From positions 30,889 to 94,888 of the IMG/VR virus record IMGVR_UViG_3300038548_000082: a DNA stretch of 64,000 bases; one strand, written 5' to 3'. Under the pieces are notes generated by a model that saw only the letters and a list, made by a program, of their open reading frames with translations, did not search any database and was not told the origin of the DNA. Source of the DNA: a virus (Duplodnaviria > Heunggongvirae > Uroviricota > Caudoviricetes). Shown piece by piece: positions 5,622 to 24,811 of the stretch. The position numbers were made by a program, and so were the translations under genes. The stretch's first letter is position 1. Each line of letters begins with the position of its first letter.

Positions 5622-5682
5622 CATTAGCCGGTATACCACTCAAGTGGATTCTCATTATGGCCTCAAGGGGGTTTTGATTATC

Positions 5683-5753
5683 CGCTCAAGCGATTTCTCA
5701 TATACGACTCAAGCGATTTCTGATTCACGCCTCAAGCGATTTCTCATATACGG
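5683..5753. repeat. three tandem direct repeats (~23 bp, core CTCAAGCGATTTCT)
   Basis: Core at 5685-5698, 5708-5721, 5731-5744; degenerate copy at 5661. Confidence 0.7.
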
Positions 5754-5799
5754 GTTTACACGTTTTTACACGAGAATTTGCTTTGAAAAGTGGATTTTT

Positions 5800-5900
5800 A
5801 CGAATACGAATGAGAATCATTATCAAACGCGAATGATTATCATTCAAGGTGTGAATACGAATCATTATCATTATCAAACACGAATAAGAATCATTAGCAT
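5800..5900. repeat. AATACGAAT...AATCATT repeat family (4 copies)
   Basis: Repeated AATACGAATgagAATCATTATCAAAC units; inverse of repeats at 13229-13386. Confidence 0.65.
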
Positions 5901-6014
5901 TTAGAAAACACCGCCCACTCTCTCTTCCTCTCTGATGAGATTCCGCTTAGACTTCCCTGCCTACCCCCTCTCAACAAGGCGAACTTCTTTCGCCCTCTCT
6001 CAAGTAGTGGGGCT

Positions 6015-6042
6015 ATCTTAACAGGCTGATAGCAGCTGTCAA
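6015..6042 (-). promoter_or_regulatory. sigma70-like promoter on minus strand (TTGACA-16-TAAGAT) reading leftwards into ORF-free repeats
   Basis: Reverse complement of 6015-6042 gives TTGACAgctgctatcagcctgtTAAGAT; part of 35-bp perfect inverted repeat. Confidence 0.5.
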
Positions 6043-6277
6043 CACTTTATTAAAAAGAATTTAAAATACTTTATTAGTAATGAGAATCATTCGCATTCGC
6101 TAAATAACGCCCACCTTCCCCTCCTCCGTAGTCAGAATGTATAGAGATCATAACATACTGATTAGCCCCGTCAACCACTAATTACAACTAATCACAAATA
6201 AACCTAAATTAAATTACCTATATAAGAAGCAACAACAAATCAAAAGTATTTTAAATTCTTTTTAATAAAGTGTTGAC
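6038..6277. repeat. 35-bp perfect inverted repeat (arms 6038-6072 and 6243-6277) carrying divergent promoters
   Basis: gtcaacactttattaaaaagaatttaaaatacttt vs its exact reverse complement. Confidence 0.8.
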
Positions 6278-6300
6278 TCTCTCTGTAGCTTTGTTAAGAT
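6273..6300 (+). promoter_or_regulatory. sigma70-like promoter (TTGACT-16-TAAGAT)
   Basis: Consensus boxes upstream of ORF 6340. Confidence 0.6.
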
Positions 6301-6339
6301 AGCACCACTTAAACAAAACGACTAAACAGGTACAAGCGA

Positions 6340-6645
6340 ATGATCACTAAAACCTCTATTAATACAACTGTTATTCTAAAGCTTTTAAAAGCCTTTCGTG
6401 AAGCTCAAAAACACGGAATAGCCCATGTTAGGAATAGGAAAGGAAACGCCTTTTTAGCTGTTAGAAAATTCATTGTTAACGGTAAAGTTTTTTTCCAAGT
6501 GTTAGACAAACATGGTAACAATGTTAAAAGGTTGATAACTTCAATGGTTTGCTCTTTTATGAATGCTGATATTGTTTCTCATAATGTGGCTGGCCTTTTA
6601 GTGGATCGTTTAGCCTACCCTTTCCAATTAGGGCAAAGAGCTTAA
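6340..6645 (+). CDS. hypothetical early protein
   Basis: ORF track; own promoter and conserved leader. Confidence 0.5.
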   Translation: MITKTSINTTVILKLLKAFREAQKHGIAHVRNRKGNAFLAVRKFIVNGKVFFQVLDKHGNNVKRLITSMVCSFMNADIVSHNVAGLLVDRLAYPFQLGQRA

Positions 6646-6652
6646 AAAGTTC

Positions 6653-6681
6653 TTGACAGCTAAATAGATACCCTGTAAATT
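6653..6681 (+). promoter_or_regulatory. sigma70-like promoter (TTGACA-17-TAAATT)
   Basis: Sequence boxes. Confidence 0.5.
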
Positions 6682-6711
6682 ACAAACTCAATTAATTAAA
6701 AGGTTTAGAAA

Positions 6712-6855
6712 ATGACTAATTCAGCGATGCAAAAAATCCGTAAACATCAAAAGCCAAAGACTAACAAGGATCTAGTCAAAGAGCATAAGAGCACAATTCG
6801 CAAGGCGAGAAAAAACCGCCATAATCTTTGGATTATCAAAGGAGATTTATTATAA
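6712..6855 (+). CDS. hypothetical small basic protein (47 aa)
   Basis: ATG after promoter; stop overlaps next start (TAATG). Confidence 0.3.
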   Translation: MTNSAMQKIRKHQKPKTNKDLVKEHKSTIRKARKNRHNLWIIKGDLL

Positions 6856-7145
6856 TGACTAATTTTCTAAACCGTAATGAAGTAGACGCCATTTTATTCG
6901 ACTTACAAGGTCAAATGGTAAGTGTTGACTTTATCAAAAAAGATGGAACAAAACGTAAACTTAACGGACAATTAGTACCTAGCCCCGGTAGCCATAATGG
7001 GCATAGTAATCTATTCACTATTGCGCTAGCTAGTAGCAAAAAGGACAATAAAGCATTTCGTTCTGCTAGTCGTGATAAGATTACGCGAATTGCTGGCAAG
7101 GGTAAAGTTTTTGCTGTACGTAGTAGCCTAGCAAGCTTGATCTAA
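6855..7145 (+). CDS. hypothetical protein
   Basis: Internal ATG with GGAG RBS preferred over ORF-track start 6828. Confidence 0.5.
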   Translation: MTNFLNRNEVDAILFDLQGQMVSVDFIKKDGTKRKLNGQLVPSPGSHNGHSNLFTIALASSKKDNKAFRSASRDKITRIAGKGKVFAVRSSLASLI

Positions 7146-7223
7146 GAGGTTTTAGCCCTTAGCCTATGCGATTGTATAGGCTAATACTAAACCCTTTTAA
7201 ACCGCCTTATAGGACGTTCTACG

Positions 7224-7577
7224 ATGTTTGACGATACCACATTAAAAGCAATACATTGTTATAAATCCTTTGAGCAAGATATAAGCCACAATTACAGTTT
7301 TGACAGAAAAGTTGTTATTTTAAAAAGTGTTGACGGCAGCTATAGATTTTGCTATAAACGTGCATTAGACCAAGGTATACGCGCTTTTGATAGTTGCTTA
7401 ATTGTGAGTAGTTCAAACACTATTACCAGTGTTTACACTGTACCTAGTAAGAGGCGGCAAAAAATAGCTAAACAGCTACTATTAGTAGCACGTTTAACAC
7501 TTGGTAGTGTTTACCATAACGACCATTTAACGGTTAGCGGTAAACTATGGCGAGATAGTGTAGAAAACTTAAAATAA
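7224..7577 (+). CDS. hypothetical protein
   Basis: ORF track; contains internal promoter-like TTGACG-17-TATAAA at ~7327. Confidence 0.5.
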   Translation: MFDDTTLKAIHCYKSFEQDISHNYSFDRKVVILKSVDGSYRFCYKRALDQGIRAFDSCLIVSSSNTITSVYTVPSKRRQKIAKQLLLVARLTLGSVYHNDHLTVSGKLWRDSVENLK

Positions 7578-7581
7578 AGTG

Positions 7582-7609
7582 TTGACAGCTACTATCAACC
7601 TGTTAAGAT
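7582..7609 (+). promoter_or_regulatory. sigma70-like promoter (AAGTGTTGACA-16-TAAGAT) + conserved leader
   Basis: Sequence boxes. Confidence 0.6.
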
Positions 7610-7641
7610 AGCTACAACTTAAACAAAGAGAGCAAACAACC

Positions 7642-8325
7642 ATGACTAAACTTACATTAAAAGCTGCTAAAAAATTCGGTGTCGTTACTAAAGGCAATAG
7701 CAAAATTCATGGTTCTACATTCTCTACTGATCCTTATCGTTGCAAGGTGGGATCTAAGCTTGTCAATGTCGAAGGTAGCACTTGCTCTAATTGCTACGCT
7801 CTTAAGCTTGCTAAAGTTTACCCAAGTGCGGCTAAGTCATGGTCCGATAACTTAGACTTATTTAGGGGCGCTGTTTATACTGGTGAGTTGCTAGAATGGT
7901 GTGAAGCAATCGCACATCAAATCAAAATGATTAGCAATCTAAAAGTTAAAAAAGGCGACAAAGGCGCTATGTTTCATCGGTGGTTTACAGCTGGTGATTT
8001 AGACAGTATGGATATGTTGCGCGCTTTTGTTAAAGTGGCTCAATTATTACCTGAAATCGAGTTTTGGCTACCAACACGAGAAAAGGCACTTGTTAGCCAA
8101 TATAAAAACGGCCTTGGTGTTGTCCCTAGTAACATGGTAATACGTCTCTCAAGCGCAATAATAGACGCTAGACCAATACTAGCAGCTAACACTAGCACTA
8201 CGCACAATAAAGGCGCTAAATCATACGGTTTTAAATGCCCAGCTCAAAAGACTAGCGGCAATTGTAACGATTGTACAACATGCTGGAATTCAGACATTAA
8301 AAACATTTCTTATGAAATACACTAA
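7642..8325 (+). CDS. hypothetical Cys-rich (putative zinc-binding) protein
   Basis: ORF track 227 aa; CxxC...C clusters. Confidence 0.5.
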   Translation: MTKLTLKAAKKFGVVTKGNSKIHGSTFSTDPYRCKVGSKLVNVEGSTCSNCYALKLAKVYPSAAKSWSDNLDLFRGAVYTGELLEWCEAIAHQIKMISNLKVKKGDKGAMFHRWFTAGDLDSMDMLRAFVKVAQLLPEIEFWLPTREKALVSQYKNGLGVVPSNMVIRLSSAIIDARPILAANTSTTHNKGAKSYGFKCPAQKTSGNCNDCTTCWNSDIKNISYEIH

Positions 8326-8333
8326 ATAAGTGT

Positions 8334-8362
8334 TTACAAGCCATACTGCACAATGTAGTATG
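8334..8362 (+). promoter_or_regulatory. promoter-like TTTACA-17-TAGTAT overlapping terminator hairpin
   Basis: taagtgTTTACA resembles cassette -35 consensus. Confidence 0.4.
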
Positions 8363-8370
8363 GCTTTATT
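8340..8370 (+). terminator. rho-independent terminator
   Basis: GCCATACT-loop-AGTATGGC followed by TTTATT. Confidence 0.6.
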
Positions 8371-8394
8371 AATCACTAGTAAGGAAGTAAGGAT

Positions 8395-8619
8395 ATGTCA
8401 TTCAGTAGAGATCAAAAGTTTTGCGGTAAATGCGGTAAACCTTGCGAGGTTATCACTATTGACGATGGCATAGGTAGCCACGAATTTTGGGGTAGTGTGT
8501 CAATTCACCATGATTATATTACCGTATCGGATTGCTGTGAGAGTGAACAGTATTTTGATGAAATAGAAGCTTTTGAGGAGCTAGGTGATAGCCACTTACA
8601 AATTGATTTAAAATTGTAA
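8395..8619 (+). CDS. small zinc-ribbon-like protein
   Basis: CGKCGKPC...DCC motif. Confidence 0.45.
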   Translation: MSFSRDQKFCGKCGKPCEVITIDDGIGSHEFWGSVSIHHDYITVSDCCESEQYFDEIEAFEELGDSHLQIDLKL

Positions 8620-8626
8620 TTAAGTG

Positions 8627-8655
8627 TTGACAAGTTAAAAACCGCTTGATAAGAT
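8627..8655 (+). promoter_or_regulatory. sigma70-like promoter (TAAGTGTTGACA-17-TAAGAT)
   Basis: Sequence boxes; stop codon TAA embedded in extended -35. Confidence 0.6.
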
Positions 8656-8687
8656 AGCTACACATTAAACGAAGCGAGTACAAAGTA

Positions 8688-8975
8688 ATGATATATTCAA
8701 CCATTACAACTGTTAAGAAAACTATTAACGTATTACCTCATAAAGTGCCAGCTATCAAAGATGCAGCTGCGAGGGGTGAGCAAGTTTTCTTCACTAATAG
8801 TGGCTATAATGCTAACAAAGGCACGGTACTCTTTGATGGTGGCTTAAATTATCATGTGTATGGTGGTAAACTGGGTCTAAGTCAAGAAACCATTGAACAA
8901 TTACAAGCTAAAGGCTTGGGTATTCTGGACACAACAAAAGGCTTTTTTCAATTCGCGTATTATGAAAATAAGTAA
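8688..8975 (+). CDS. hypothetical protein
   Basis: ORF track. Confidence 0.5.
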   Translation: MIYSTITTVKKTINVLPHKVPAIKDAAARGEQVFFTNSGYNANKGTVLFDGGLNYHVYGGKLGLSQETIEQLQAKGLGILDTTKGFFQFAYYENK

Positions 8976-8983
8976 ATAAATAC

Positions 8984-9011
8984 TTGCTAATAGCTGTCAG
9001 AGTGTTAAGAT
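8984..9011 (+). promoter_or_regulatory. sigma70-like promoter (TTGCTA-16-TAAGAT)
   Basis: Sequence boxes + conserved leader. Confidence 0.55.
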
Positions 9012-9043
9012 AGCTACAACTTAAACAGAAAGAGTATAAGACA

Positions 9044-9436
9044 ATGAACAACCCAAACATGATTAAAACAGCCCGTAATATCCTAGAAACTTCTATCAAT
9101 GCCGTAGATGCTAGCCCTAGCGATTACACGCTAACAGAGCTAAAGGAGCTTATGGCTGAAATTCTAGACAACACAGAGGTTGACTATTGTCTAGAGTTAG
9201 ACGGTTTTGGTGAGGTTCGTTTAATTCATTCAGATGATATGGCTGAAATCTGGACCGAATCACTACTTGAGCAAATTAAAGACTGTTATGAACTTGATAA
9301 GATTCCCGCCTTTGTTTCTATTGATTGGGAACAGACCGTCGAAAATTGCAAGATTGACGGCATGGGTCACCACTTTTCTAGTTATGATGGCAACGAATAC
9401 AGCTCAGGGGACTGGTATATATTCAGAACTAACTAA
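9044..9436 (+). CDS. hypothetical acidic protein
   Basis: ORF track. Confidence 0.5.
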   Translation: MNNPNMIKTARNILETSINAVDASPSDYTLTELKELMAEILDNTEVDYCLELDGFGEVRLIHSDDMAEIWTESLLEQIKDCYELDKIPAFVSIDWEQTVENCKIDGMGHHFSSYDGNEYSSGDWYIFRTN

Positions 9437-9459
9437 ACCAAGTTATTTTAACAAAGTGC

Positions 9460-9488
9460 TTTACATTGTGAGAGCACTTGATTAAGAT
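9460..9488 (+). promoter_or_regulatory. promoter (TTTACA-17-TAAGAT) with inverted repeat AAGTGCT/AGCACTT in spacer
   Basis: Sequence. Confidence 0.5.
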
Positions 9489-9520
9489 AGCTACAACTTA
9501 AACAAAACGAGTACAGCTCA

Positions 9521-9604
9521 ATGATTAATCTAAATAATGTAGTTAAAGGTGTTTCTTGGGGTTCTATCTTGTTGACAGTAGTCACCGTAGCTTTAGGGGC
9601 CTAA
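9521..9604 (+). CDS. 27-aa hydrophobic peptide
   Basis: ATG directly after conserved leader; single TM-like segment. Confidence 0.3.
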   Translation: MINLNNVVKGVSWGSILLTVVTVALGA

Positions 9605-9608
9605 AACA

Positions 9609-9749
9609 ATGTTAGATACTGCAATTACGCTAACAGGTCTATTTGTCTTTGTAATGGTTTTCGCTATTGGTGGTAGTGTTATTACCAACAAACTGTTAAA
9701 ATCGCTTAAAACGCCTCTCAGGGGCGCTACAAAGCATCCAACTAATTAA
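9609..9749 (+). CDS. 46-aa small membrane peptide
   Basis: ATG 5 nt after previous stop; hydrophobic N-terminus, basic C-terminus. Confidence 0.3.
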   Translation: MLDTAITLTGLFVFVMVFAIGGSVITNKLLKSLKTPLRGATKHPTN

Positions 9750-9837
9750 GAGAATGTATAGAAAAAGCTTGCTATTAGGATTAGTAAGCTTTAATATGTA
9801 GTTTCTTTCAACAGTAAAGCAAAAGCGAGTGCAATTT

Positions 9838-10068
9838 ATGAGTAATGTCGTGTTAGTAGCAACTAGTTATACAGGTTTTTTAAATTCTCAAAAAGCTGTC
9901 AAGGAAGCTTTTGATAATGACAAGGATTTCATTATTAAAAACGTTACAGACAGGTACTATGGTAAACCCTGTAATAAGTCGGATTTGTTACAAGCTACAG
10001 AGTATAATTGTGCTCAAATTTATTATGGTAAGAATAACGCTAAAGTGGTTTGTATTTATTTCAAATAA
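9838..10068 (+). CDS. hypothetical protein
   Basis: ORF track (start moved to MSNVVL). Confidence 0.45.
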   Translation: MSNVVLVATSYTGFLNSQKAVKEAFDNDKDFIIKNVTDRYYGKPCNKSDLLQATEYNCAQIYYGKNNAKVVCIYFK

Positions 10069-10071
10069 GTG

Positions 10072-10099
10072 TTGCATTGTTCTCAAAAGTCTGTAATAT
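10072..10099 (+). promoter_or_regulatory. promoter (TTGCAT-16-TAATAT), leader family 2 (CTTACTTACTTA)
   Basis: Sequence. Confidence 0.5.
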
Positions 10100-10133
10100 A
10101 GATCTTACTTACTTAGACAAGCAAGGCAGCGAC

Positions 10134-10253
10134 ATGAAACAGCATACTAAAGACATACTAGGCGGATTCGTTCAAGTGGTTGAAGTGGCTGACCATGGCA
10201 TAGTAGTTAGCTTGGTTGTCAAGTGTTTATTTCTTACAATTATTATTAAATAA
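10134..10253 (+). CDS. 39-aa small hydrophobic protein
   Basis: Internal ATG downstream of promoter. Confidence 0.35.
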   Translation: MKQHTKDILGGFVQVVEVADHGIVVSLVVKCLFLTIIIK

Positions 10254-10366
10254 GCCGCCACTTTGAGAGAGTGCGAACAGGTCGCTAGTAGGGATTCCAA
10301 ATCTCGAACGCGCCTTATTAGGTATGCTCAAAGCTGGCGCAATTATTATTAAATAGGGTTGACATT

Positions 10367-10618
10367 ATGAAAGCTTTAGTAACTATTAATTCAGTATTGA
10401 CTGTTATCATTAGTGGTCGTGGGTGTCAAGAAATTGACGATAAAACAGCTAAGTTAGTTAGTGCTGGCAATCCTGATAATAAGATTAATAGCTGGTATGT
10501 TGAATATGAGAAAAAGTCAAATACAGCGCCAGTTATCAGTATCCATAAAAACGCTAGTTTGGATCTTTACAAACAAGCGTATGAGACAATCGAAAACTTC
10601 CATAAATATCGTAAATAA
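10367..10618 (+). CDS. hypothetical protein
   Basis: ORF track. Confidence 0.5.
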   Translation: MKALVTINSVLTVIISGRGCQEIDDKTAKLVSAGNPDNKINSWYVEYEKKSNTAPVISIHKNASLDLYKQAYETIENFHKYRK

Positions 10619-10621
10619 GTG

Positions 10622-10648
10622 TTGACAGCTTAAGCCAAGGTCTATAAT
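10622..10648 (+). promoter_or_regulatory. promoter (TTGACA-15-TATAAT), leader family 2
   Basis: Sequence. Confidence 0.6.
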
Positions 10649-10690
10649 ATAGGCCTTACTTACTTAAACAAGCAATCAGGATTACAGAAT

Positions 10691-11086
10691 ATGAGCATTT
10701 TTACTAAATCAACAGTTATCGCATCCTACCCAGCATATGACATTATTAAGCGCGAAAAAGCTAGACAAGGTTATGTCAATCTTGTAGCTGGTGAGACCTT
10801 GGTAAAGTCTGACCATTTAGGCAGCTACAAAATCAATAGTGCGGTATCTTATGCCCTAGAGAATAATCAAGATCCTATTGAATCGTATAATCAGTGCCTG
10901 TCTAATGGTGACGATACCCATTGGATTAACGCTCAAGCGTCTAGCCTATCAGATTGCAAGGAAGCTAAAAAAGTTCATATTGAGATTGACTTTGAAACAA
11001 CTTATATGTTTGAGGGTAAATGGTTCAATATTAAGCCATCTGCTAATAACAACCTAAGGTTAGTACCGGCAACTTTTATCTTGTAA
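10691..11086 (+). CDS. hypothetical protein
   Basis: ORF track. Confidence 0.5.
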   Translation: MSIFTKSTVIASYPAYDIIKREKARQGYVNLVAGETLVKSDHLGSYKINSAVSYALENNQDPIESYNQCLSNGDDTHWINAQASSLSDCKEAKKVHIEIDFETTYMFEGKWFNIKPSANNNLRLVPATFIL

Positions 11087-11093
11087 TTAAGTG

Positions 11094-11122
11094 TTGACAA
11101 GGGGCGCAAGCCCCTATACTAT
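11094..11122 (+). promoter_or_regulatory. promoter TTGACA-[AGGGGCGCAAGCCCCT hairpin]-TATACT
   Basis: Sequence; GNRA-loop hairpin inside spacer. Confidence 0.55.
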
Positions 11123-11153
11123 AGCTACTCATTAAACAAAACGAGCAAAGATT

Positions 11154-11531
11154 ATGAAAACCTTTATTTTCTGGAATCCTGAAAAAGTTAGCGGTAACAC
11201 TACTCTCAACGGTTATACGTGTACCGTAGGGGAGCTACAAACCTTTGAAGCGGAGGAGAGTATTAGTATTAGTAGCACTCTATCGTTAGTTGATGAGGAG
11301 CAAGCCAAGGCGTTTGTAGAAGCTGTTTTATGTGAAGGTGACTTAGAGCTACGCTATGCTGAAATAATAGACTTCCAGAAGCTCTTATCAGTAATGGAGT
11401 GCTTGATTGATACAGTACAGAGTACTACAGACCTAGAAAATGTCTATGATGACAGCAAAGAACAGTCTTTTAGCTGGCAGGAAGTTATGGAACAGTACCA
11501 AGTATTAAAAGTACTTGCTAAGGTTGAATAA
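11154..11531 (+). CDS. hypothetical acidic protein
   Basis: ORF track. Confidence 0.5.
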   Translation: MKTFIFWNPEKVSGNTTLNGYTCTVGELQTFEAEESISISSTLSLVDEEQAKAFVEAVLCEGDLELRYAEIIDFQKLLSVMECLIDTVQSTTDLENVYDDSKEQSFSWQEVMEQYQVLKVLAKVE

Positions 11532-11534
11532 GTG

Positions 11535-11563
11535 TTGACAAGGGGCGCAAGCCCCTATACTAT
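11535..11563 (+). promoter_or_regulatory. promoter TTGACA-[hairpin]-TATACT (duplicate of 11094 module)
   Basis: Near-identical 60-bp module. Confidence 0.55.
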
Positions 11564-11594
11564 AGCTACTCATTCAACAAAACGAGCAAAGACT

Positions 11595-11858
11595 ATGAAA
11601 ACTTCAAAAACCGTATTGTCAGACGCGATTTTCTACTGCATGCAAAGTGAAAAGCTTTGGGACCATAACGACCAAAAATTTAAGGTTTGTGTTGACGTTT
11701 TGCAGCTGCCTTGCTTGATTGATGGGGTGACTGTTAGCGGTCAAAGCATCGTTGACTATGCTAGTGACATGAAAGAGCTGTATGCTGAGGGTAGCTACAG
11801 CCCTAGCGAGTTTCATGACATGTTTATAAGTGTTGAGAATTTCTTAGAGATCCAATAA
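11595..11858 (+). CDS. hypothetical protein
   Basis: Internal ATG after promoter/leader; ORF-track start 11532 would read through promoter. Confidence 0.5.
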   Translation: MKTSKTVLSDAIFYCMQSEKLWDHNDQKFKVCVDVLQLPCLIDGVTVSGQSIVDYASDMKELYAEGSYSPSEFHDMFISVENFLEIQ

Positions 11859-11865
11859 ATAAGTG

Positions 11866-11896
11866 TTGACAAGGGGCTAGCGCCCCTATACTATGG
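11866..11896 (+). promoter_or_regulatory. promoter TTGACA-[AGGGGCTAGCGCCCCT palindrome]-TATACT
   Basis: Sequence. Confidence 0.55.
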
Positions 11897-11928
11897 TTAC
11901 TCTTTAAACGAATACAGGAATTAAACAA

Positions 11929-12099
11929 ATGTACTGCATTTACAGTCTAAACCATACTAGCCAGAAAACATATCTCACAGACTTGGATGGCGAGCGTGTA
12001 ATCTACACAAAGGAGCTAGCAGAGCAACAACTAGAAATCTTTGAACAATTACCGTATAAGTCTTTGTATGTTACTTGGCATATGATCAAATATAGCTAA
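11929..12099 (+). CDS. 56-aa hypothetical protein
   Basis: ATG after leader family 1 variant. Confidence 0.4.
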   Translation: MYCIYSLNHTSQKTYLTDLDGERVIYTKELAEQQLEIFEQLPYKSLYVTWHMIKYS

Positions 12100-12125
12100 T
12101 ACAATCCAGCGAAAGCCTACAAAAC

Positions 12126-12155
12126 CTCTAGTGGTTATCTGCTAGGGGTTTTTCT
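12126..12155 (+). terminator. rho-independent terminator ending early cassette
   Basis: CCTCTAG-loop-CTAGGGG + TTTTT. Confidence 0.6.
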
Positions 12156-12181
12156 ACATCTAGTGCCTACCAACAGTCTAT

Positions 12182-12218
12182 ACCACAACATGTAGTATGA
12201 TACCATATGTTGTGGTAC
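12182..12218. repeat. 11-bp inverted repeat hairpin (TACCACAACAT / ATGTTGTGGTA); partial third copy at ~12311
   Basis: Sequence; also CTACATCTAGTG direct repeats at 12154 and 12237. Confidence 0.6.
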
Positions 12219-12887
12219 AAGTGAACCAATAACACTACATCTAGTGGTATATAAAAACTCTGTTTAATATAACAAAACGTTCTAGGTTAATTTATAACCA
12301 CTACCACTACATGTTGTGGTTTGCAAGTTATTTTTAACTATTATGAACTGTATTCTAAAATAGTGTGGTACAATCTCTATAAGGGTTTTTATAAGGTCTT
12401 ACAAAGCAGTTAAACGCACTATAAAAAGGTTTGTAAGCGAGTATAGCAGCTCCTCAAGAGAATAGATATACCCATAAGGCATAGCCAAAGGGTATAGAGT
12501 GTAAATACTATAAGAGACGTTTAAAGGCCTTTAAAGAGTATGATATTAAATAGGCCTTTTAAAACGTTTTAAGTAGAGTAAAACTTAATCACTCTAGTAT
12601 CGGCTTTGCCTACTACCTCTATTAATACTAGCCTTATAGCGAATAGGCGAGCCGTTAAAGCTCTTATAAGCGAGTTTGCCTAGCATCCTATAAAGAGGGT
12701 AGGGTATAAGCTAACATTGCTTACAGGCTACTATAGGGGCTATGAGAGTTGTCAAGTGTTATTAGCTGCTAATATGAGTTGTAAATTCTTCTACATTGTC
12801 TCTTATTCTCTCTTATGGGTTAGACCCCCTCACATCTTTCCACATATGTCAAGCTTTATTTTAATTATTTCCTCTCGTTAATAAGTG

Positions 12888-13340
12888 TTGACAATACCCT
12901 ACCAGCATGCTAGGCGTATCACTCTAGCTGCTAAGCAATTACCATGCCAGAACTTTCCAATAGTGTGAGCATACTAACAGCCCCTTGTCAACCCTTAATT
13001 AATCCTTGACAATACCCTTGCCCTATGCTAGGGCTATTCCAATCCTCATAGCACACACAAGGCCCCTTGTCAACCCTTGACATTATGTTATCAGTATGCT
13101 ATGAACATCGGTATAGTGTGAGCATACTCTACACTCTATGTCAACCCTTGACAGTATGCTGATAGTATGCTAGTGATGATGAGGTGTTGACAAGGAGTTA
13201 ACAGTATGCTAGCCACAGCATGAGAATGATTCGTATTAGCCATATGATAATGATTCGCATTCAACTAATAATACTTGACAAGGCGATGATAGTATGATAG
13301 TGATAATTAATAGTTGACAAGGCATTGATAGTATGCTAGG
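12888..13340. repeat. array of ~10 units TTGACA-N11-(G/C)(T/C)ATGCTAG, 7 direct and 3 inverted
   Basis: Direct units at 12888, 13006, 13077, 13148, 13187, 13275, 13314; inverted (CCCCTTGTCAACCCTT ... GAGCATACT) at ~12966-12993, 13046-13078, 13121-13150. Confidence 0.75.
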
Positions 13341-13386
13341 AGGATGATGAGAATGATAGTGCGAATGATAATGATTCGTATTCAAT
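13229..13386. repeat. AATGATTCG(T/C)ATT repeat family (inverse orientation of 5800-5900 family)
   Basis: GCGAATGATAATGATTCGTATTC (13362-13384) is 20/23 reverse-complement match to 5853-5875. Confidence 0.65.
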
Positions 13387-13591
13387 AAAAATATTCTTAA
13401 AAACCTATTGACTTTTGATATGGTTTTGTGGTACGGTTAAACACCTATACCGATAAGTTCAAATATTCAAAAGGTACTTCAAAGGGTTAACAACGTTAGG
13501 AGGATATTCTCCCTATAGGAGACAGGAGAAACCCCTTTCAATTGCTGATCGGGGTTATAAAAATTTGGAATTGTGAGGAAGAGGTGTACAA

Positions 13592-13798
13592 TTATTGATC
13601 AATCTTGAAATGGTTCTTAAATGTAGTAGCACTTACATACCCTATCATCCCTCCTGTGTCACACCTACTCAGACGATACCGTTCAATCCCTCTGAAGCCT
13701 CCTAAGGGAGTTGCTACTACTTTGTCATGTAGTTGGTAACGTCCTCTTTGGTCTCTGACAATAGCCACAGCATAGACGTTCTTACCTTTTAGTTCCAT
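13592..13798 (-). CDS. hypothetical protein
   Basis: ORF track, minus-strand block. Confidence 0.4.
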   Translation of the reverse strand: MELKGKNVYAVAIVRDQRGRYQLHDKVVATPLGGFRGIERYRLSRCDTGGMIGYVSATTFKNHFKIDQ

Positions 13799-18850: not shown

Positions 18851-19291
18851 CTAGTAACTCCAAAGCCTTGGGGCTGCTCTACGTTCATCTAAATGGATAA
18901 AACGGCTCCCTGAGTCTCCTGTGAGGTTTATACCTATACCTGTGTATCCAAGTGCAAAGGCTTGTTTAACAATCTTGTGGCAATCTTCTGTCGGCACTCG
19001 AAAGTCGATGGCGGCAATGCTATGATATCCGGGTTTGGATTTGTCCACTTCGATAGGATGGGTTGGGGAACGATAAGCACTATTGACATACATAGGCTTA
19101 TCGTACCAATCACGGATTTCCTGAATACCGTCCATAAGTTGTGTGAATTCTTCGACATTGGGGTTTTCCTCTCCAGTGTGTTGGCAGACTAACTCTTCTT
19201 TTGTGAAGTTAGGCCAGCGATCATAATCATACATAATCATGTTCCTCTTAGTTAGAATGTTGTTGGTTGAGCTATCCCTCGGATCACCCAC
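18851..19291 (-). CDS. peptidase M15 family (zinc D-Ala-D-Ala carboxypeptidase fold; putative endolysin or cell-wall hydrolase)
   Basis: SAYRSPTHP ... HSIAAIDF ... FIHLD motifs (H/D/H zinc ligands of M15). Confidence 0.6.
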   Translation of the reverse strand: MGDPRDSSTNNILTKRNMIMYDYDRWPNFTKEELVCQHTGEENPNVEEFTQLMDGIQEIRDWYDKPMYVNSAYRSPTHPIEVDKSKPGYHSIAAIDFRVPTEDCHKIVKQAFALGYTGIGINLTGDSGSRFIHLDERRAAPRLWSY

Positions 19292-19476
19292 ATAAAACCT
19301 TGTTGTAAGTTGGTCTTACCTAAGGCGACACACCGTTGGTCAATAGCATCAGAACCCTCTATCTTGGCTAAGAACTCTTTGCATTCTTCTGCTAGGGCCT
19401 TACCCTCGTTCATCAGGGCTATCTCTGCTACGTTAAGGTCTCTGTAACCTTTGATCATCTTGTGTTGGTTGTCCAT
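19252..19476 (-). CDS. hypothetical protein
   Basis: ORF track. Confidence 0.4.
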   Translation of the reverse strand: MDNQHKMIKGYRDLNVAEIALMNEGKALAEECKEFLAKIEGSDAIDQRCVALGKTNLQQGFMWVIRGIAQPTTF

Positions 19477-20762: not shown

Positions 20763-20836
20763 AGCCCCTTACTTAACAGGAGAAAGCTTAGTTTACGAAA
20801 CTAAGGATCAGGGTTCGAGTCCTTGAGGGGCTGCCA
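20763..20836 (+). tRNA. tRNA-Arg (anticodon ACG)
   Basis: Manual fold: acceptor AGCCCCT/AGGGGCT, AC stem TTAGT/ACTAA loop TTACGAA, T-loop TTCGAGT, CCA encoded. Confidence 0.7.
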
Positions 20837-21143
20837 ACATAGGAGAAGTTAAAATGAAAGTAACATGCAGTAAAGTTAAACGTCTCCGACAAGGTGGCGG
20901 CTCTAGTAACAGTCCTACAGTTACCAGTAAAGTAACAGCATTCCGATGGCAACCTAAAGACCTAAGCGATATTAAAGGTATTTAGGGTTACGGACACAAG
21001 GTGTCAGAAGGATTCCAAACCCTTCTTACGGGGAGCATTACCTCGGTAGCCTGCCAAAGAGAGAACAACGGATTAAGGGACAGGTACTTGCATCCTGCTT
21101 ATCGACGCTGTAACAAGCTTAGCAAGAAAAGTAAAATAAAGAG

Positions 21144-21171
21144 TTGACATATACAAGAGTCGTGTTATTAT
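21144..21171 (+). promoter_or_regulatory. promoter (TTGACA-16-TATTAT) with hairpin across -10
   Basis: Sequence. Confidence 0.5.
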
Positions 21172-21287
21172 AACCACTCTTGAAGAAAGAAATCCAAAGT
21201 AACTTAACAGAAACTAAGGAGGACGATATGCAAATCGGGGGCTAAAGACCCTCAGCCAAGAAAAGTAGAATTAACTGTTGACAGTGA

Positions 21288-21315
21288 GTAAAAACGTGTT
21301 ATACTGTGCAACATA
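21288..21315 (+). promoter_or_regulatory. promoter (TTGACA-16-TATACT) upstream of tRNA-Lys
   Basis: Sequence. Confidence 0.6.
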
Positions 21316-21376
21316 ACTTAAACTAACCCATAAGGAGGGTTTCAATGAAACAATCAGACAAACCCAATAAACTTAT

Positions 21377-21452
21377 GGGTGTGTAGCTCAATTGGTAGAG
21401 CAGGGAGCTTTTAACTCTCAGGTCGTCGGTTCAATCCCGACCACACCCACCA
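21377..21452 (+). tRNA. tRNA-Lys (anticodon TTT)
   Basis: Manual cloverleaf; GGGTGTG/CACACCC acceptor, loop CTTTTAA, CCA encoded. Confidence 0.85.
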
Positions 21453-21849
21453 AAGAGTGTATTTAAAGGAGACCTTTAACCACAACAGTTATAACATCGT
21501 GTTGATGTAGAAACAGTAAAGTTAGAGATCTCGTTTAAGTATATTCACTTGAAATAGATAATTCAGTGTAGCCTAAGAAGCAGCTTGAATGTACTTATAG
21601 ATCCTTTTAATTGACACATAGCAGCTAGTAATGAGTGACTAATTAGTCAATGTGTTCTATAAAATATTAACAATGAAACATTTGCTCTACGCACTAAACA
21701 GTAGAAACACATCTTATAAAGAAGATTAGTGGATGTAGAGCACTTAATTAAGGAGATTATCATGGAATCACGAGAGATTATAACCGATCCCAGATAACTC
21801 ACCGCAAACTATAAACGGTTGTGGTGGGTTTTATTTAGGATCACTACAA

Positions 21850-21926
21850 CCGAGTGTGGGGCAGTTTGGTAGCCTACTCTGTTTGGAACGGAGGTGTCGC
21901 AGGTTCGAATCCTGCCACTCGGACCA
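21850..21926 (+). tRNA. tRNA-Pro (anticodon TGG)
   Basis: Manual cloverleaf; loop TTTGGAA; T-loop TTCGAAT. Confidence 0.8.
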
Positions 21927-21939
21927 ATTTTTAAATTGT

Positions 21940-22015
21940 GTCCTTATAGTTTATATGGTTAGAACGGTGGGCTTTCACCCCGCAGAACCGAGTTCGATCC
22001 TCGGTAAGGACACCA
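21940..22015 (+). tRNA. tRNA-Glu (anticodon TTC)
   Basis: Manual cloverleaf; loop CTTTCAC. Confidence 0.8.
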
Positions 22016-22017
22016 AT

Positions 22018-22093
22018 GCTCTGGTAGCTCAGTTGGTAGAGCAAACGGTCGATAACCGTTAGGTCATTGGTTCAAGTCCAATACAGAGTACCA
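22018..22093 (+). tRNA. tRNA-Ile (anticodon GAT), C at position 33
   Basis: Manual cloverleaf; loop TCGATAA; 7-66 mismatch. Confidence 0.6.
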
Positions 22094-22100
22094 AATTAAT

Positions 22101-22170
22101 GCGGATAAGCTTAAGGTTAGTCGCTGGGTTTCCAACCCATGTAGTTAGGGTTCGACTCCCTGTATCCGCT
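22101..22170 (+). tRNA. tRNA-Gly (anticodon TCC), 3' CCA not encoded
   Basis: Acceptor GCGGATA/TATCCGC as in T4 tRNA-Gly; loop TTTCCAA; ends ...GCT then CAA. Confidence 0.7.
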
Positions 22171-22321
22171 CAAACATTGACAGCAAGATCTGAGGAAAGG
22201 TGGTTTCATGCAGTGAGATGCAGTCCTCTATAAATCTCGTAAAGCTCCTAATGTAGGAGTCGAACCACACGCTGTTAATTAGTCCATATGCTTTGGAAGA
22301 GTAATGGACGACCAAATTAAA

Positions 22322-22396
22322 GGTTTTGTAGCTCAGAGGCAGAGCAGTCGGTTGTCAGCCGTCAGGTCGGGATTTCAAAATTCCTCAAAACCGCCA
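22322..22396 (+). tRNA. tRNA-Asp (anticodon GTC)-like, noncanonical T-arm
   Basis: Acceptor GGTTTTG/CAAAACC; loop TTGTCAG; U-U mismatch in AC stem, weak 53-61 pair; possibly pseudogene. Confidence 0.45.
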
Positions 22397-22398
22397 AT

Positions 22399-22474
22399 GC
22401 TCGAATAGCTCAGTTGGCAGAGCGCCTCCCTTGTAAGGAGGATGTCGTGGGTTCAACTCCTACTTTGAGCGCCA
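22399..22474 (+). tRNA. tRNA-Thr (anticodon TGT)
   Basis: Manual cloverleaf; loop CTTGTAA. Confidence 0.8.
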
Positions 22475-22557
22475 AATTAAACGGGGGTGCTATAGACAAG
22501 GCTGGATAATTACCAGATGATATAGATTCCATCTCCGACCAAACAATTGCGGTATAG

Positions 22558-22633
22558 AGAAGTGGTTATCTCGTTGGGTTCATAACCCAAAGATCGGGGG
22601 TTCAAATCCCTCTACCGCTACCAAACATTAATT
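22558..22633 (+). tRNA. tRNA-Met (CAT), initiator-like
   Basis: GGG/CCC in anticodon stem, A11-U24, 1-72 mismatch (T-T); loop TTCATAA. Confidence 0.75.
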
Positions 22634-22655
22634 AATACAAGGCTGTATATATTAA

Positions 22656-22865
22656 ATGAGCGTGATACATTTAACGACTAAGATACAAGAAACAATTAAA
22701 ACGATCCTTACCCCTTTGGAAAAGACTGAAATGGAAGAGGTGATCGAGTCAGTAAATGATGAAAGTACTATTCGAGGCGAATGGGCTTTTGAAGCTGGTA
22801 AAAAGGCTAGAGATGTAGGAAGAACTAATTCACCACCTGAAGTCTACGATGTTTTAGTAGACTGA
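22656..22865 (+). CDS. hypothetical protein
   Basis: ORF track. Confidence 0.4.
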   Translation: MSVIHLTTKIQETIKTILTPLEKTEMEEVIESVNDESTIRGEWAFEAGKKARDVGRTNSPPEVYDVLVD

Positions 22866-22888
22866 AGTTACTTAACAAGTACAAACAA

Positions 22889-22965
22889 TTCCTCGTGGGG
22901 CGCAAGGTGTGCCGAGTGGCTGTTAACCACTGTCGTAGTAACGTTCGATTCGTTAACGGGGAGCC
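22889..22965 (+). tRNA. tRNA-Asn (anticodon GTT)
   Basis: Acceptor TCCTCGT/ACGGGGA, AC stem AGTGG/CCACT loop CTGTTAA, T-loop TTCGATT; 7-nt variable loop. Confidence 0.65.
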
Positions 22966-23048
22966 AATTTCGACTAGACATACTTAAATCGTGAGTTCAC
23001 GAGCCTTCGGGTGGGTTGGTCAAGTCTCTGTTAATATGGAGACAAAAC

Positions 23049-23423
23049 ATGAAAGTTTGCACTTTGTGCGAAGAGAATAAACCCTTAACCGAGTTTAGGA
23101 AAAGGGCTAATAGAACCGGGTATCATGTACACTGTAAACCCTGCCAAGTCCTTTACGTGAGTAATAGGAGAAGGGAAATAAAGAAGCAGTGTCTTGAGTA
23201 TAAAGGTGGGTGTTGTTCAAAGTGTGGTTACGATAAATCAGACTATGCTTTAGAGTTTCACCACAGAGACCCCGAAAAGAAAGACTTCAGTATAAATAGA
23301 GGAGCTTCTTTAGTTTTTGATAAACTAAAAGAGGAACTTGATAAATGTGACTTACTTTGTGCTAATTGCCACAGAGAGGAACACGAACGATTAACACATA
23401 CACTAGGAGATTCGTCATTATGA
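23049..23423 (+). CDS. HNH endonuclease
   Basis: CTLC...C..C zinc knuckle, EFHHRDP and CANCH motifs. Confidence 0.65.
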   Translation: MKVCTLCEENKPLTEFRKRANRTGYHVHCKPCQVLYVSNRRREIKKQCLEYKGGCCSKCGYDKSDYALEFHHRDPEKKDFSINRGASLVFDKLKEELDKCDLLCANCHREEHERLTHTLGDSSL

Positions 23424-23500
23424 ACTTTACTTATCAACATAGCCAATTTAGTTTCCAATATTACTTTAGTTAGATAAGTAGGTTCCCGAGTGGATGCTTA

Positions 23501-23584
23501 TTTAATATAGGGTCTGCTCGCATGATGGAGAATGCACCGCACTGTAAATGCGCTACGAGAGTTGTCTTGGTTCGATTCCAAGTA
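23501..23584 (+). tRNA. tRNA-Tyr (anticodon GTA), type II
   Basis: Loop CTGTAAA, long variable arm, T-loop TTCGATT. Confidence 0.6.
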
Positions 23585-23591
23585 GGCCCAC

Positions 23592-23677
23592 CAAAATTTA
23601 GGAAGATTGGCAGAGCGGTAATGCAGCTCCCTGCTAAGGAGTACAGTCGAAAGGCTGCGTAGGTTCGATTCCTACAT
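23592..23677 (+). tRNA. tRNA-Ser (anticodon GCT), type II
   Basis: Acceptor GGAAGAT/ATCTTCC, loop CTGCTAA, long variable arm. Confidence 0.8.
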
Positions 23678-23678
23678 C

Positions 23679-23754
23679 TTCCGCCAAGGGTCTGTAGCTC
23701 ATCTGGTAGAGCATCGGTGTGAAGTACCGAGTGTAATAGGTTCAAGTCCTATCA
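23679..23754 (+). tRNA. tRNA-Phe (anticodon GAA)
   Basis: Manual cloverleaf; loop GTGAAGT. Confidence 0.8.
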
Positions 23755-23877
23755 GGCCCACCAAATTATAGTGGTGGTCTAATGCAAACAGGTGAGCAGC
23801 TGGATTGTGATTCCAGTGATATGGAGTTCGAGACTCCAAGGCCACACATCTATTCTATCAACGTCGAGGAGACTGTT

Positions 23878-24264
23878 ATGGATACAAAAACGAAGGCTAA
23901 ACAAAAGAAAGCCCTTCAACTTGGTATGAACCCTGCCACAGCGAGTGGTAGGTTGGTTAAAGATACGCTATTCCGCTTAGCTGTATCTACAGGACACAAG
24001 TGCTTCCAGTGCGGTGAAGAACTAACCAGAGAAACGTTCTCCATAGAGCACATGGAACCGTGGTTAGATAGCGAAGACCCTAAAGGTAACTTCTTTGACC
24101 AAGGTAATATAGCTTTTAGCCACCTTAGTTGTAATCGTGCAGCAGCCCGCCCCAGACCACGTACAGCAACTCGTGCAGAGGCACAAGCTACCTTTCGAGG
24201 TAGATTGGGTAAAACCGAACAGGCTAGACGACGAAAGGAGCAGTACCAACGTACAGGCACCTAG
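23878..24264 (+). CDS. HNH endonuclease (terminase-associated type?)
   Basis: CFQCGEEL...SIEHMEPW...SHLSCN; internal ATG with GAGGAG RBS chosen over 23782. Confidence 0.55.
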   Translation: MDTKTKAKQKKALQLGMNPATASGRLVKDTLFRLAVSTGHKCFQCGEELTRETFSIEHMEPWLDSEDPKGNFFDQGNIAFSHLSCNRAAARPRPRTATRAEAQATFRGRLGKTEQARRRKEQYQRTGT

Positions 24265-24559
24265 ACACCAATTAATAAGGTTTTTATTATGAGTACAGAA
24301 GTGTAACTTACGTCAATAAGACGACAGTAAACATCAAAATTAAGGAGCTACAAAAGCTTCTTAAAACTGCACAGAACCCCATTATAAAAGATAGGCTTCT
24401 GGTAGACTTAAAGTCATATAGGGCAATAAAGCACCTATTAGATCAAAAAGATTAAAAGGAAATATACCAATGTTCAAAATTACTTACATACTATTATCGC
24501 TCTCGTTATCCCTTAAATAGGGAGGATGAGTAGCACCTTATCTTCCTTAACAATACATT

Positions 24560-24645
24560 GGAAGGTAGGGCTTAGTGGTAAGCAACTAGTCTTGAAAACT
24601 AGCCCTGTGTAAAAGCAGATGGTTCGACTCCATTACCTTCCTCCA
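24560..24645 (+). tRNA. tRNA-Ser (anticodon TGA), type II
   Basis: Acceptor GGAAGGT/ACCTTCC, loop CTTGAAA. Confidence 0.75.
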
Positions 24646-24652
24646 AACAATC

Positions 24653-24729
24653 GCTCCGGTGGTCAAATTGGAATAGGCAGCAGACTTAAAATCTGTGGAT
24701 TGCGAGTTCAACTCTCGCTCGGAGCACCA
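24653..24729 (+). tRNA. tRNA-Leu (anticodon TAA) with short variable loop
   Basis: Loop CTTAAAA, A73 discriminator, 5-nt variable loop (atypical for Leu). Confidence 0.65.
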
Positions 24730-24734
24730 AACAT

Positions 24735-24811
24735 GGGCTGGTATAAGAATTGGCATATTTGCCTCGCTTAGAACGAGGAGTTTTCGGGTTCGAGTCCCGA
24801 TCAGCCCACCA
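24735..24811 (+). tRNA. tRNA-Leu (anticodon TAG) with short variable loop
   Basis: Loop CTTAGAA, A73, 5-nt variable loop. Confidence 0.65.

Follow-up and report, generated by a model that had tools for sequence, protein, structure and literature searches.

We analysed a 64,000-nucleotide stretch of DNA from a virus of the class Caudoviricetes (IMG/VR record IMGVR_UViG_3300038548_000082, positions 30,889 to 94,888; hereafter the window), and in particular an array of promoter-like units at positions 12888-13339. A + strand early cassette of small genes ends at 12099 and a - strand gene block ends at 13592, and the junction between them is convergent. The interval 12100-13591 holds just three short open reading frames (ORFs; 42-54 aa), in agreement with the ORF-free convergent hub of 1.5 kb described in an earlier note on this DNA. 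The motif TTGACA-N11-GTATGCTAG, allowing up to three mismatches, was found 11 times in the window, compared with a mean of 2.64 and a maximum of 8 in 100 shuffles. Ten of these matches, each with two mismatches or fewer, lie inside 12888-13339; the eleventh, with three mismatches, lies elsewhere in the window. All ten units, of which seven lie in + and three in - orientation, have a perfect TTGACA followed after exactly 11 bp by the second box. The recount thus confirmed the array of seven direct and three inverted units with a fixed spacer that the note had reported. The second box agrees exactly with GTATGCTAG in three units, with one mismatch in four and with two in three; every unit keeps its TG at positions 4-5 and its T at position 7. 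Information content across the units was maximal in the two boxes and lower in the N11 spacer and the flanks. The octamer AGTATGCT occurs ten times in the window, seven of them in the array.

Unit 1 (12888-12913, + strand) reads TTGACA-N11-GCATGCTAG, has the hexamer TAGGCG at the 17-bp position and retains the upstream motif AATAAGTG of the phage's canonical early promoters. It is faced, at 104 bp end to end, by unit 2 (12966-12991, - strand; TTGACA-N11-GTATGCTCA), whose hexamer TCACAC lacks both the A at -11 (A-11) and the T at -7 (T-7). Unit 3 (13006-13031, +; TTGACA-N11-CTATGCTAG, hexamer TAGGGC) and unit 4 (13048-13073, -; TTGACA-N11-GTGTGCTAT, hexamer TATGAG) face each other at 68 bp end to end, as do unit 5 (13077-13102, +; TTGACA-N11-GTATGCTAT, hexamer TATGAA) and unit 6 (13119-13144, -; TTGACA-N11-GTATGCTCA, hexamer TCACAC). 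These pairs are linked back to back by TGTCAA-CCC-TTGACA, at 13068-13082 between units 4 and 5 and at 13139-13153 between units 6 and 7. The three face-to-face pairs are followed by two tandem pairs with 39-bp spacing, which lie within a 127-bp duplication. Unit 7 (13148-13173, +; hexamer TAGTGA) and unit 8 (13187-13212, +; hexamer TAGCCA), both exact matches to TTGACA-N11-GTATGCTAG, form the first pair. The second consists of unit 9 (13275-13300, +; box GTATGATAG, hexamer TAGTGA), a duplicate of unit 7 (84-nt repeat D3, 75% identity), and unit 10 (13314-13339, +; exact match, hexamer TAGGAG). The predicted starts of face-to-face units lie about 3 bp apart, and those of units 8 and 10 fall near 13222, on a repeat resembling a Fur box, and near 13349, within an array of such repeats. 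The pairing of inverted with direct units had been taken to suggest a DNA-level role in protein binding. The layout proved even more ordered than described. The conserved bases fit the sigma-70 holoenzyme, and a separate DNA-binding protein is not needed.

This fit becomes apparent when the second box is read in the register of a canonical 17-bp spacer. In this register, GTATGC followed by TA corresponds to an extended -10 element (TRTGn, -17 to -13) and then T-12 and A-11. TTGACA is present in 10/10 units, TG at -15/-14 in 10/10, TRTG in 9/10, and T-12 at the 17-bp spacer in 10/10. As a promoter reference we used 80 unrelated GP88-linked phage loci, which share the GP88 gene alone with the window. 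Genuine promoters in this set have the form TTGACA-N11-nTRTGC-TATAAT, and two loci, L133 and L135, contain TTGACA-N11-GTATGC-TATAAT. T at -17 (0.68) and A at -16 (0.55) were enriched at the TTGACA-N17-TANNNT sites of the set, and TG at -15/-14 was found in 24% of these sites against 8% of other TTGACA sites. Since the GTATGC string precedes TATAAT in real promoters, the box was divided into GTATGC and TAG. For the same reason we rejected TATGCT as a -10 hexamer with a 12-bp spacer, a T4 MotA-like geometry. Recognition by the sigma-70 holoenzyme accounts for all the conserved bases, and a separate bipartite DNA-binding protein, one of the options raised in the earlier note, is therefore not needed; its option of RNA polymerase binding or decoy remains live. 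None of the sigma-32, sigma-28, sigma-54 and sigma-E consensuses fits the units. A Type I restriction site was rejected for its spacing, and a miniature inverted-repeat transposable element (MITE) or Correia-like element was rejected because the interiors of the 68-bp pairs are mutually unrelated.

The gene-proximal promoters of the phage consist of AATAAGTG-TTGACA-N16/17 followed by TAAGAT, TACTAT, TAATAT or TATACT, all with T-7. These are of the ordinary sigma-70 type, which indicates that the host polymerase is conventional. Units 2, 4 and 8-10 retain the TTGACAAGG(GGC) start of these ordinary promoters. At the hexamer itself, A-11 is present in 8/10 units and T-7 in 0/10, so that no unit has the A-11 and T-7 of a complete extended -10 promoter. 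By comparison, 11/14 of the single TTGACA-N12-TRTGn sites found among the reference loci have T-7. When the window was pooled with six other contig sets described below, T-7 was found in 1/26 tandem units versus 11/14 singles (Fisher p = 1.7e-6), a figure that counts one genome per contig set and is approximate given unit duplication and the TAR constraint of the search; for the window units alone against the singles, p = 1e-3. To judge from the sequences, T-7 appears to be avoided, not simply unselected. Henry et al. (2020, PMC7703639) showed that a promoter without -7T has very little strength in the absence of CarD, and in alphaproteobacteria promoters of this kind are normal and depend on activation by CarD (PMC7703639; Myers et al. 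2021, PMC8407463). In vitro, the lack of -7T is partly made good by a TGC extended -10 (PMC7703639), and the units may therefore fire to some degree. The earlier note was thus correct that the units have a poor -10 hexamer at the 17-bp position and that they are unlike the gene-proximal promoters of the phage. Its conclusion that they are not ordinary promoters held as regards the poor -10, but non-promoter status is not established, given this compensation.

The conserved block (-35, extended -10 and -12) ends where promoter DNA is read as a single strand (-11 and -7). We therefore favour, with a probability of roughly 0.55, the reading that the ten units are recognition sites for the primary-sigma form (sigma-70/sigma-A type) of host polymerase, serving as attenuated promoters or docking sites at a transcription junction. 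They would be built like extended -10 promoters with the melting half removed, and would bind well and open poorly.

We investigated whether similar arrays occur in other phages. A scan for two tandem units found one viral contig, L122 (= L128), with five units at 39-41-bp spacing. This array heads an early block of small genes including a homologue of the window ORF 7642-8325. Two variant units, TAGACA-N11-TTGTGCTAG, lie upstream of the five-unit array, and the hub of this distant relative that is homologous to the window's, at L122 8400-9250 (- strand view), is full of CCTTAG/CTAAGG motifs in dozens of copies. A relaxed scan (TRTGCTAR, twice) found 17 viral contigs, which fall into an 11-contig family (L221 family), L215, L217, L218/L220 and L219; the L221 family is related to L122, with a terminase 65% identical. 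Each of these groups carries two to four such units (TAG or TAA hexamers), central in a non-coding hub and 160-480 nt from the next same-strand gene. In several other phage lineages, tandem TAG-type units are 39-59 bp apart in non-coding hubs. Perfect consensus promoters adjoin the genes on both sides of the hub in the L221 family, which also has a back-to-back junction, TGTCAA-GTG-TTGACA. In its central units the -35 and TGC-TAG boxes do not vary, and variation is greatest in the columns of the N11 spacers. No close relatives of the window phage were found.

The control scan for TAY-type pairs found 3 contigs, and the TAR pattern proved rare in bacteria, with 4 matches in 596 Gb of bacterial genomes, two of them with normal T-7 hexamers. 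A single-unit scan of viral contigs returned single matches alone, consistent with chance. Among the metagenome matches, L124 resembles a satellite repeat in eukaryote-like DNA with exon-like segments; L127 and, probably, L123 likewise seem to be satellites that carry the pattern by chance, and all three were discounted. In L125, a ribosome-binding site comes right after two related units whose hexamer is TACAAC. No small protein common to the array-bearing phages was found within the available DNA, and the one alignable region downstream of the L221-family units showed no covariation. G-rich non-template tracts lie 0-150 nt past the tandem units in L215, L218, L219 and L221 (e.g. GGGGACGGGGGAGGG, TAGGGGGAGGTGGGTGG); such tracts would be expected at origins that are primed by transcription and form R-loops. 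The window's own units have no tract of this kind behind them. At the end of the viral contig L225 (11525-11700), a complete promoter, TTGACA-N11-TTGTGC-TATGAT, forms a 29-bp perfect head-to-tail repeat of at least 6 copies.

The units were compared with known systems. Extended -10 promoters (TGn; the Gram-positive '-16 region' TRTGn) share TTGACA, the 17-bp spacer, TRTG at -17 to -14, and T-12 A-11 with the units, which differ in that their last four -10 positions are non-consensus and lack T-7 and that they are clustered in both directions with no gene downstream. The T7 A1/A2/A3 and T5 early promoters are tandem host-polymerase sites with good -10 hexamers that point in one direction and drive genes. 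The window array resembles these non-coding leaders of virulent phages in having several strong -35-type sites in a row, and the L122 array likewise heads an early operon; in contrast to them, the window array lies at a convergent junction in both orientations. Iteron arrays (of plasmids and P1) and centromeres such as F sopC (12 x 43 bp) are tandem repeats about four helical turns apart in mixed orientation. The window array is alike in its tandem period of about four helical turns and its mix of direct and inverted units, but no initiator or partition gene was found near it, and its repeat equals the polymerase consensus. No partition-protein domain was found among the scanned window ORFs or the precomputed Pfam calls for 11.5-25.4 kb, which gives a partition centromere no backing. 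The signals of E. coli 'promoter islands' are reportedly diffuse, overlapping and AT-rich, whereas the window has ten discrete, precisely conserved units with fixed spacing. These islands are described as dense promoter-like sites in horizontally acquired DNA that are largely transcriptionally inactive (Panyukov and Ozoline 2013, PMC3661553; PMC7054387). The untranslated repeat region 3 of T5-like phages, an injection stop signal, has paired DnaA boxes inside a terminal repeat (Davison, bioRxiv 10.1101/866236), whereas the window motif is promoter-like and the window is genome-internal. No DnaA boxes were evident in the hub by eye, no formal scan having been run. Alphaproteobacterial -7T-less promoters (PMC7703639; PMC8407463) are a functional class that likewise lacks T-7, a defect for which a TGC extended -10 compensates in vitro; in contrast, the gene-proximal promoters of the window phage all have T-7.

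The hub has other features in addition to the array. On the left it is bounded by a bidirectional intrinsic terminator at 12121-12153 (AAAA, CCTCTAG, 10-nt loop, CTAGGGG, TTTTT), which closes the + strand early cassette. The right-hand boundary is the hairpin AACCCC...GGGGTT at 13531-13557 (- strand), which comes just past the stop codon of the final - strand gene and probably terminates the - strand block. The left half contains a family of near-perfect palindromes and inverted repeats, ACCACAACATGTAGT / ACTACATGTTGTGGT, at 12179-12320, including 18-nt arms 1 nt apart at 12181-12217; some copies contain extended -10-like TGgTACAAG or TGgTACAAT. This family accounts for the stronger folding of the left half relative to shuffled sequence (z = -3.7). 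Pockets rich in AT (27-29% GC) are present at 12220-12340, 12500-12580 and 13340-13460. A scan of the hub against Rfam 15 identified no family, with two sub-threshold miRNA-model matches on a palindrome, and the predicted rightward transcript region 13345-13600 showed no unusual stability (z = -0.97). Two TTGACA sites on the - strand, at 12727-12755 and 12824-12852, have promoter-type upstream sequence and no usable -10. The former has TATAGT after a spacer of just 14 bp, the latter reads TTGACA-N12-TGTGA-GGGGGT, and both look like degenerate relatives of the units. A complete extended -10 promoter read by eye at 13408-13437 (+ strand; TTGACT, 18-bp spacer, TGg, TACGGT), with A-11 and T-7 present, is directed at the 3' end of the - strand block and could give rise to a small RNA that stops at the hairpin 13531-13557 and is about 100-130 nt long.

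Repeats of the form ATGA(G/T)AATGATTCG(T/C)ATT follow units 8 and 10, and a related box lies between units 9 and 10. Two such repeats are at 13220-13264 (+ strand), directly 3' of unit 8. A hexamer array at 13296-13385 (+ strand) covers 13296-13314 between units 9 and 10 and 13343-13385 past unit 10. The hub copies agree at 13-14 of 19 positions with the Fur consensus (19-bp GATAATGATAATCATTATC, AATGAT-n-ATCATT core). In a second hub near 5.8 kb the agreement reaches 15 of 19, and one copy has a perfect 6-1-6 core (about 5833-5845); the two arrays together account for 23 of the 43 Fur-box-like matches in the window in about 500 bp. The 21-mer AATGATAATGATTCGTATTCA of the 13296-13385 array recurs unchanged on the opposite strand of the second hub, near 5.87 kb. 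The repeats overlap the predicted starts of units 8 and 10 in operator fashion. Among the internal evidence this is the best indication of regulated promoters, for at least the four tandem units that point rightward. No Fur-like boxes were found near the arrays of other phages. Small peptides (MRMIRI...) after units 8 and 10 were considered and rejected, as the ribosome-binding site differs between the two copies.

The second gene-free hub, at 5622-6339, has three direct repeats, CTCAAGCGATTTCT(C/G)AT, at 5685-5750 and a dense Fur-box-like array at 5800-5900 and 6076-6100 with a perfect AATGATTATCATT core. It also has two leftward consensus-type promoters (-35 starting at 6042 and 6174, - strand) with no ORF downstream, and G-rich tracts on the - strand. 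Its 15-mer GAGGGGGTAGGCAGG is also present in L219, where it lies 3' of the TAG-type pair. Between this hub and the array, at 6340-12099, each small early gene is preceded by a repeated promoter module of 57-74 nt (11084-11161, 11527-11602, 11856-11912). The module reads AATAAGTG-TTGACA-AGGGGCGCAAGCCCCTA-TACTAT-AGCTAC, has a GC hairpin within the promoter spacer, and recalls the mobile promoter/stem-loop cassettes of T4-type phages. Ribosome-binding sites are weak in the early small genes, in contrast to the AGGAGG sites that serve the - strand block.

The window phage is contractile-tailed, with genes for a large terminase, portal, major head protein, tail sheath and tape measure. Further genes encode a CCA-adding enzyme and a nicotinamide phosphoribosyltransferase. 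Identity between the terminase and its counterparts in cultured Aeromonas, Klebsiella and Salmonella phages does not exceed 52%. The phage collection held no DNA similar to the window, and the flanking proteins, being orphans, led to no relatives. The sole other copies found were of the same phage, identical, in run SRR12660648 and in a Joint Genome Institute (JGI) contig. The public short-read assembly (Logan) of SRR12660648 breaks at about 6067 and about 11545 of the window, both next to repeated promoter modules. More genes, including a rIIB-like one, lie upstream, and the window is therefore internal to the genome. The hub accordingly found no support as a genome end or terminal-repeat boundary, and no long hub repeat occurs elsewhere in the window. 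Sixteen tRNA genes were called by ARAGORN at 20763-24811, with an extra Rfam candidate at 22101-22170 that ARAGORN did not call. A 74-aa ORF at 19252-19476 (- strand) has a precomputed Pfam match to the Acb2/Tad1 hairpin family (anti-CBASS/Thoeris sponge) and lies in the leftward block beside an M15 peptidase and a nucleoside deoxyribosyltransferase-like gene.

If the units are indeed attenuated promoters or docking sites, established promoter structure suggests how they would work. Sigma region 4 would bind the perfect TTGACA, and regions 3.0 and 2.4 would read TRTGC (-17 to -13) and T-12 on duplex DNA after the 17-bp spacer. Polymerase would dock well, while open complexes would be slow or unstable; the array would consequently be occupied by polymerase, and firing would be weak or condition-dependent. 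Neighbouring sites would compete in the face-to-face and back-to-back packing, and the four rightward tandem units appear to be gated by the Fur-box-like operators over their predicted starts. The array may thus function as a hub for loading and buffering polymerase between converging gene blocks, with low-level non-coding transcription both ways. Selection on the boxes, which appear perfect while the N11 spacers and flanks have diverged, is consistent with this proposal. Several points weigh against it. The T-7 statistics are inflated by duplication-related units, and the comparison phages are distant and, with the exception of L122, were found via a pattern that itself requires TAR. A consensus -35 with TGC may make the units reasonably active, which leaves 'attenuated' a matter of judgement. 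The unbroken run of nine conserved bases from G-18 to G-10 exceeds the known requirements of the E. coli polymerase, and the 39-41-bp tandem period with exact 68-bp pairs would also suit a cooperative DNA-binding protein. Moreover, promoters without T-7 would be normal if the host is an alphaproteobacterium or other CarD-bearing organism.

The main rival, which we regard as possible but rather improbable, is that the units are fully productive extended -10 promoters that make non-coding RNAs, or that prime or activate a replication origin via R-loops, as in T4 oriF/ori34, the T7 primary origin and ColE1. Leftward transcripts of about 0.8-1 kb would then run across 12120-12960 to the bidirectional terminator, and rightward transcripts would be antisense to the end of the - strand block. 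Compensation for the missing -7T by the TGC extended -10 in vitro (PMC7703639) would allow such output, and both the five tandem units heading the early gene block of L122 and the related units directly before a ribosome-binding site in L125 are in line with it; systematic avoidance of T-7 (1/26) would nevertheless be odd under selection for output, and A-11, too, is missing from units 2 and 6. With starts only some 3 bp from each other in face-to-face pairs, each polymerase would run into the opposing site, which also counts against productive promoters. Non-coding RNAs find no backing in the hub scan of Rfam, in the structure of 13345-13600 or in the covariation analysis. As for an origin, the AT-rich pockets and many palindromes of the hub and the G-rich tracts in four other phage groups are consistent with it, but the window's units are followed by no such tract. 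Together, the close starts, the absence of a downstream gene, the two units without A-11 and the avoidance of T-7 indicate that output is apparently not selected, and for this reason the reading of attenuated promoters or docking sites was chosen. Recognition by a dedicated non-polymerase DNA-binding protein, either a phage early protein or a host factor, at an iteron origin, centromere or multi-operator switch seems unlikely. The match to -35 and extended -10 elements would then be coincidental or a means of competing with polymerase. A bipartite motif with rigid spacing, the tandem period shared by the window and L122, the exact inverted pairs with their TGTCAA-CCC-TTGACA palindromes and the similar junction in the L221 family would all suit such a protein, as would the surplus of conserved bases; yet each conserved position is a known polymerase contact in the canonical register. 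No Rep, Par, helix-turn-helix (HTH) or other DNA-binding domain was found in the ORFs flanking the hub, and the sole lead to such a protein, ORF 8688-8975, was dropped as a sigma-region-4-like binder. This orphan matched Sigma70_r4 of Pfam at E = 0.04, had no meaningful PDB sequence match, and gave a mostly beta AlphaFold model of low confidence (predicted local distance difference test, pLDDT, 52.7). The origin, centromere and phage-protein readings of the earlier note thus received no support, and with no small protein common to the array phages either, the reader of the units is most simply the host polymerase.

It is quite improbable that the units represent another temporal promoter class, read by an alternative host sigma, by a phage-modified polymerase that replaces downstream -10 recognition, or with a CarD-like stabiliser. 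Distinct conserved units (TAG plus purine-rich) beside canonical promoters in several phages, and the CarD-activated -7T-less promoters that are the norm in alphaproteobacteria (PMC7703639, PMC8407463), would accord with such a class. However, the motif is found nowhere else in the window or in 9.4 kb upstream and thus drives no recognisable gene set, and no sigma, MotA or AsiA-like protein was detected in the scanned ORFs. We consider it least probable of all, and very unlikely, that the units are non-functional relics, that is, mobile promoter cassettes decayed after gene loss and multiplied by local duplication. The early cassette is indeed built of repeated promoter modules whose flanks are shared by unit 1 and several others, degenerate TTGACA copies adjoin the array, and units 7-8 and 9-10 are a recent duplication. 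Nevertheless, TTGACA is perfect and TG at -15/-14 present in 10/10 units despite diverged spacers, the same class has invariant boxes in other phage lineages, and the GTATGCTAG box is not found in the functional cassettes from which relics would derive.

For annotation, the practical point is that promoter scanners that demand TAnnnT miss these units and that counting a 12-bp spacer to TATGCT misreads them. The Fur-box-like repeats raise the possibility of an iron response in part of the early region. More tentatively, and with rather low confidence, TAG-type units (consensus -35, TRTGC, T-12 A-11 and no T-7) may be conserved phage-specific closed-complex traps, with hub arrays that hold the sigma-70 holoenzyme without release into elongation or hand polymerase to adjacent consensus promoters. 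If so, they would soak up host polymerase according to copy number as the genome replicates and act as a DNA-encoded timer or sponge, comparable to datA for DnaA and 6S RNA for polymerase. Phage takeover of host transcription is usually attributed to proteins that modify or inhibit polymerase, and a cis-acting DNA array would be a different lever on the early programme. As the design recurs in several uncultured phage lineages, such a lever would be general rather than a curiosity of one genome.

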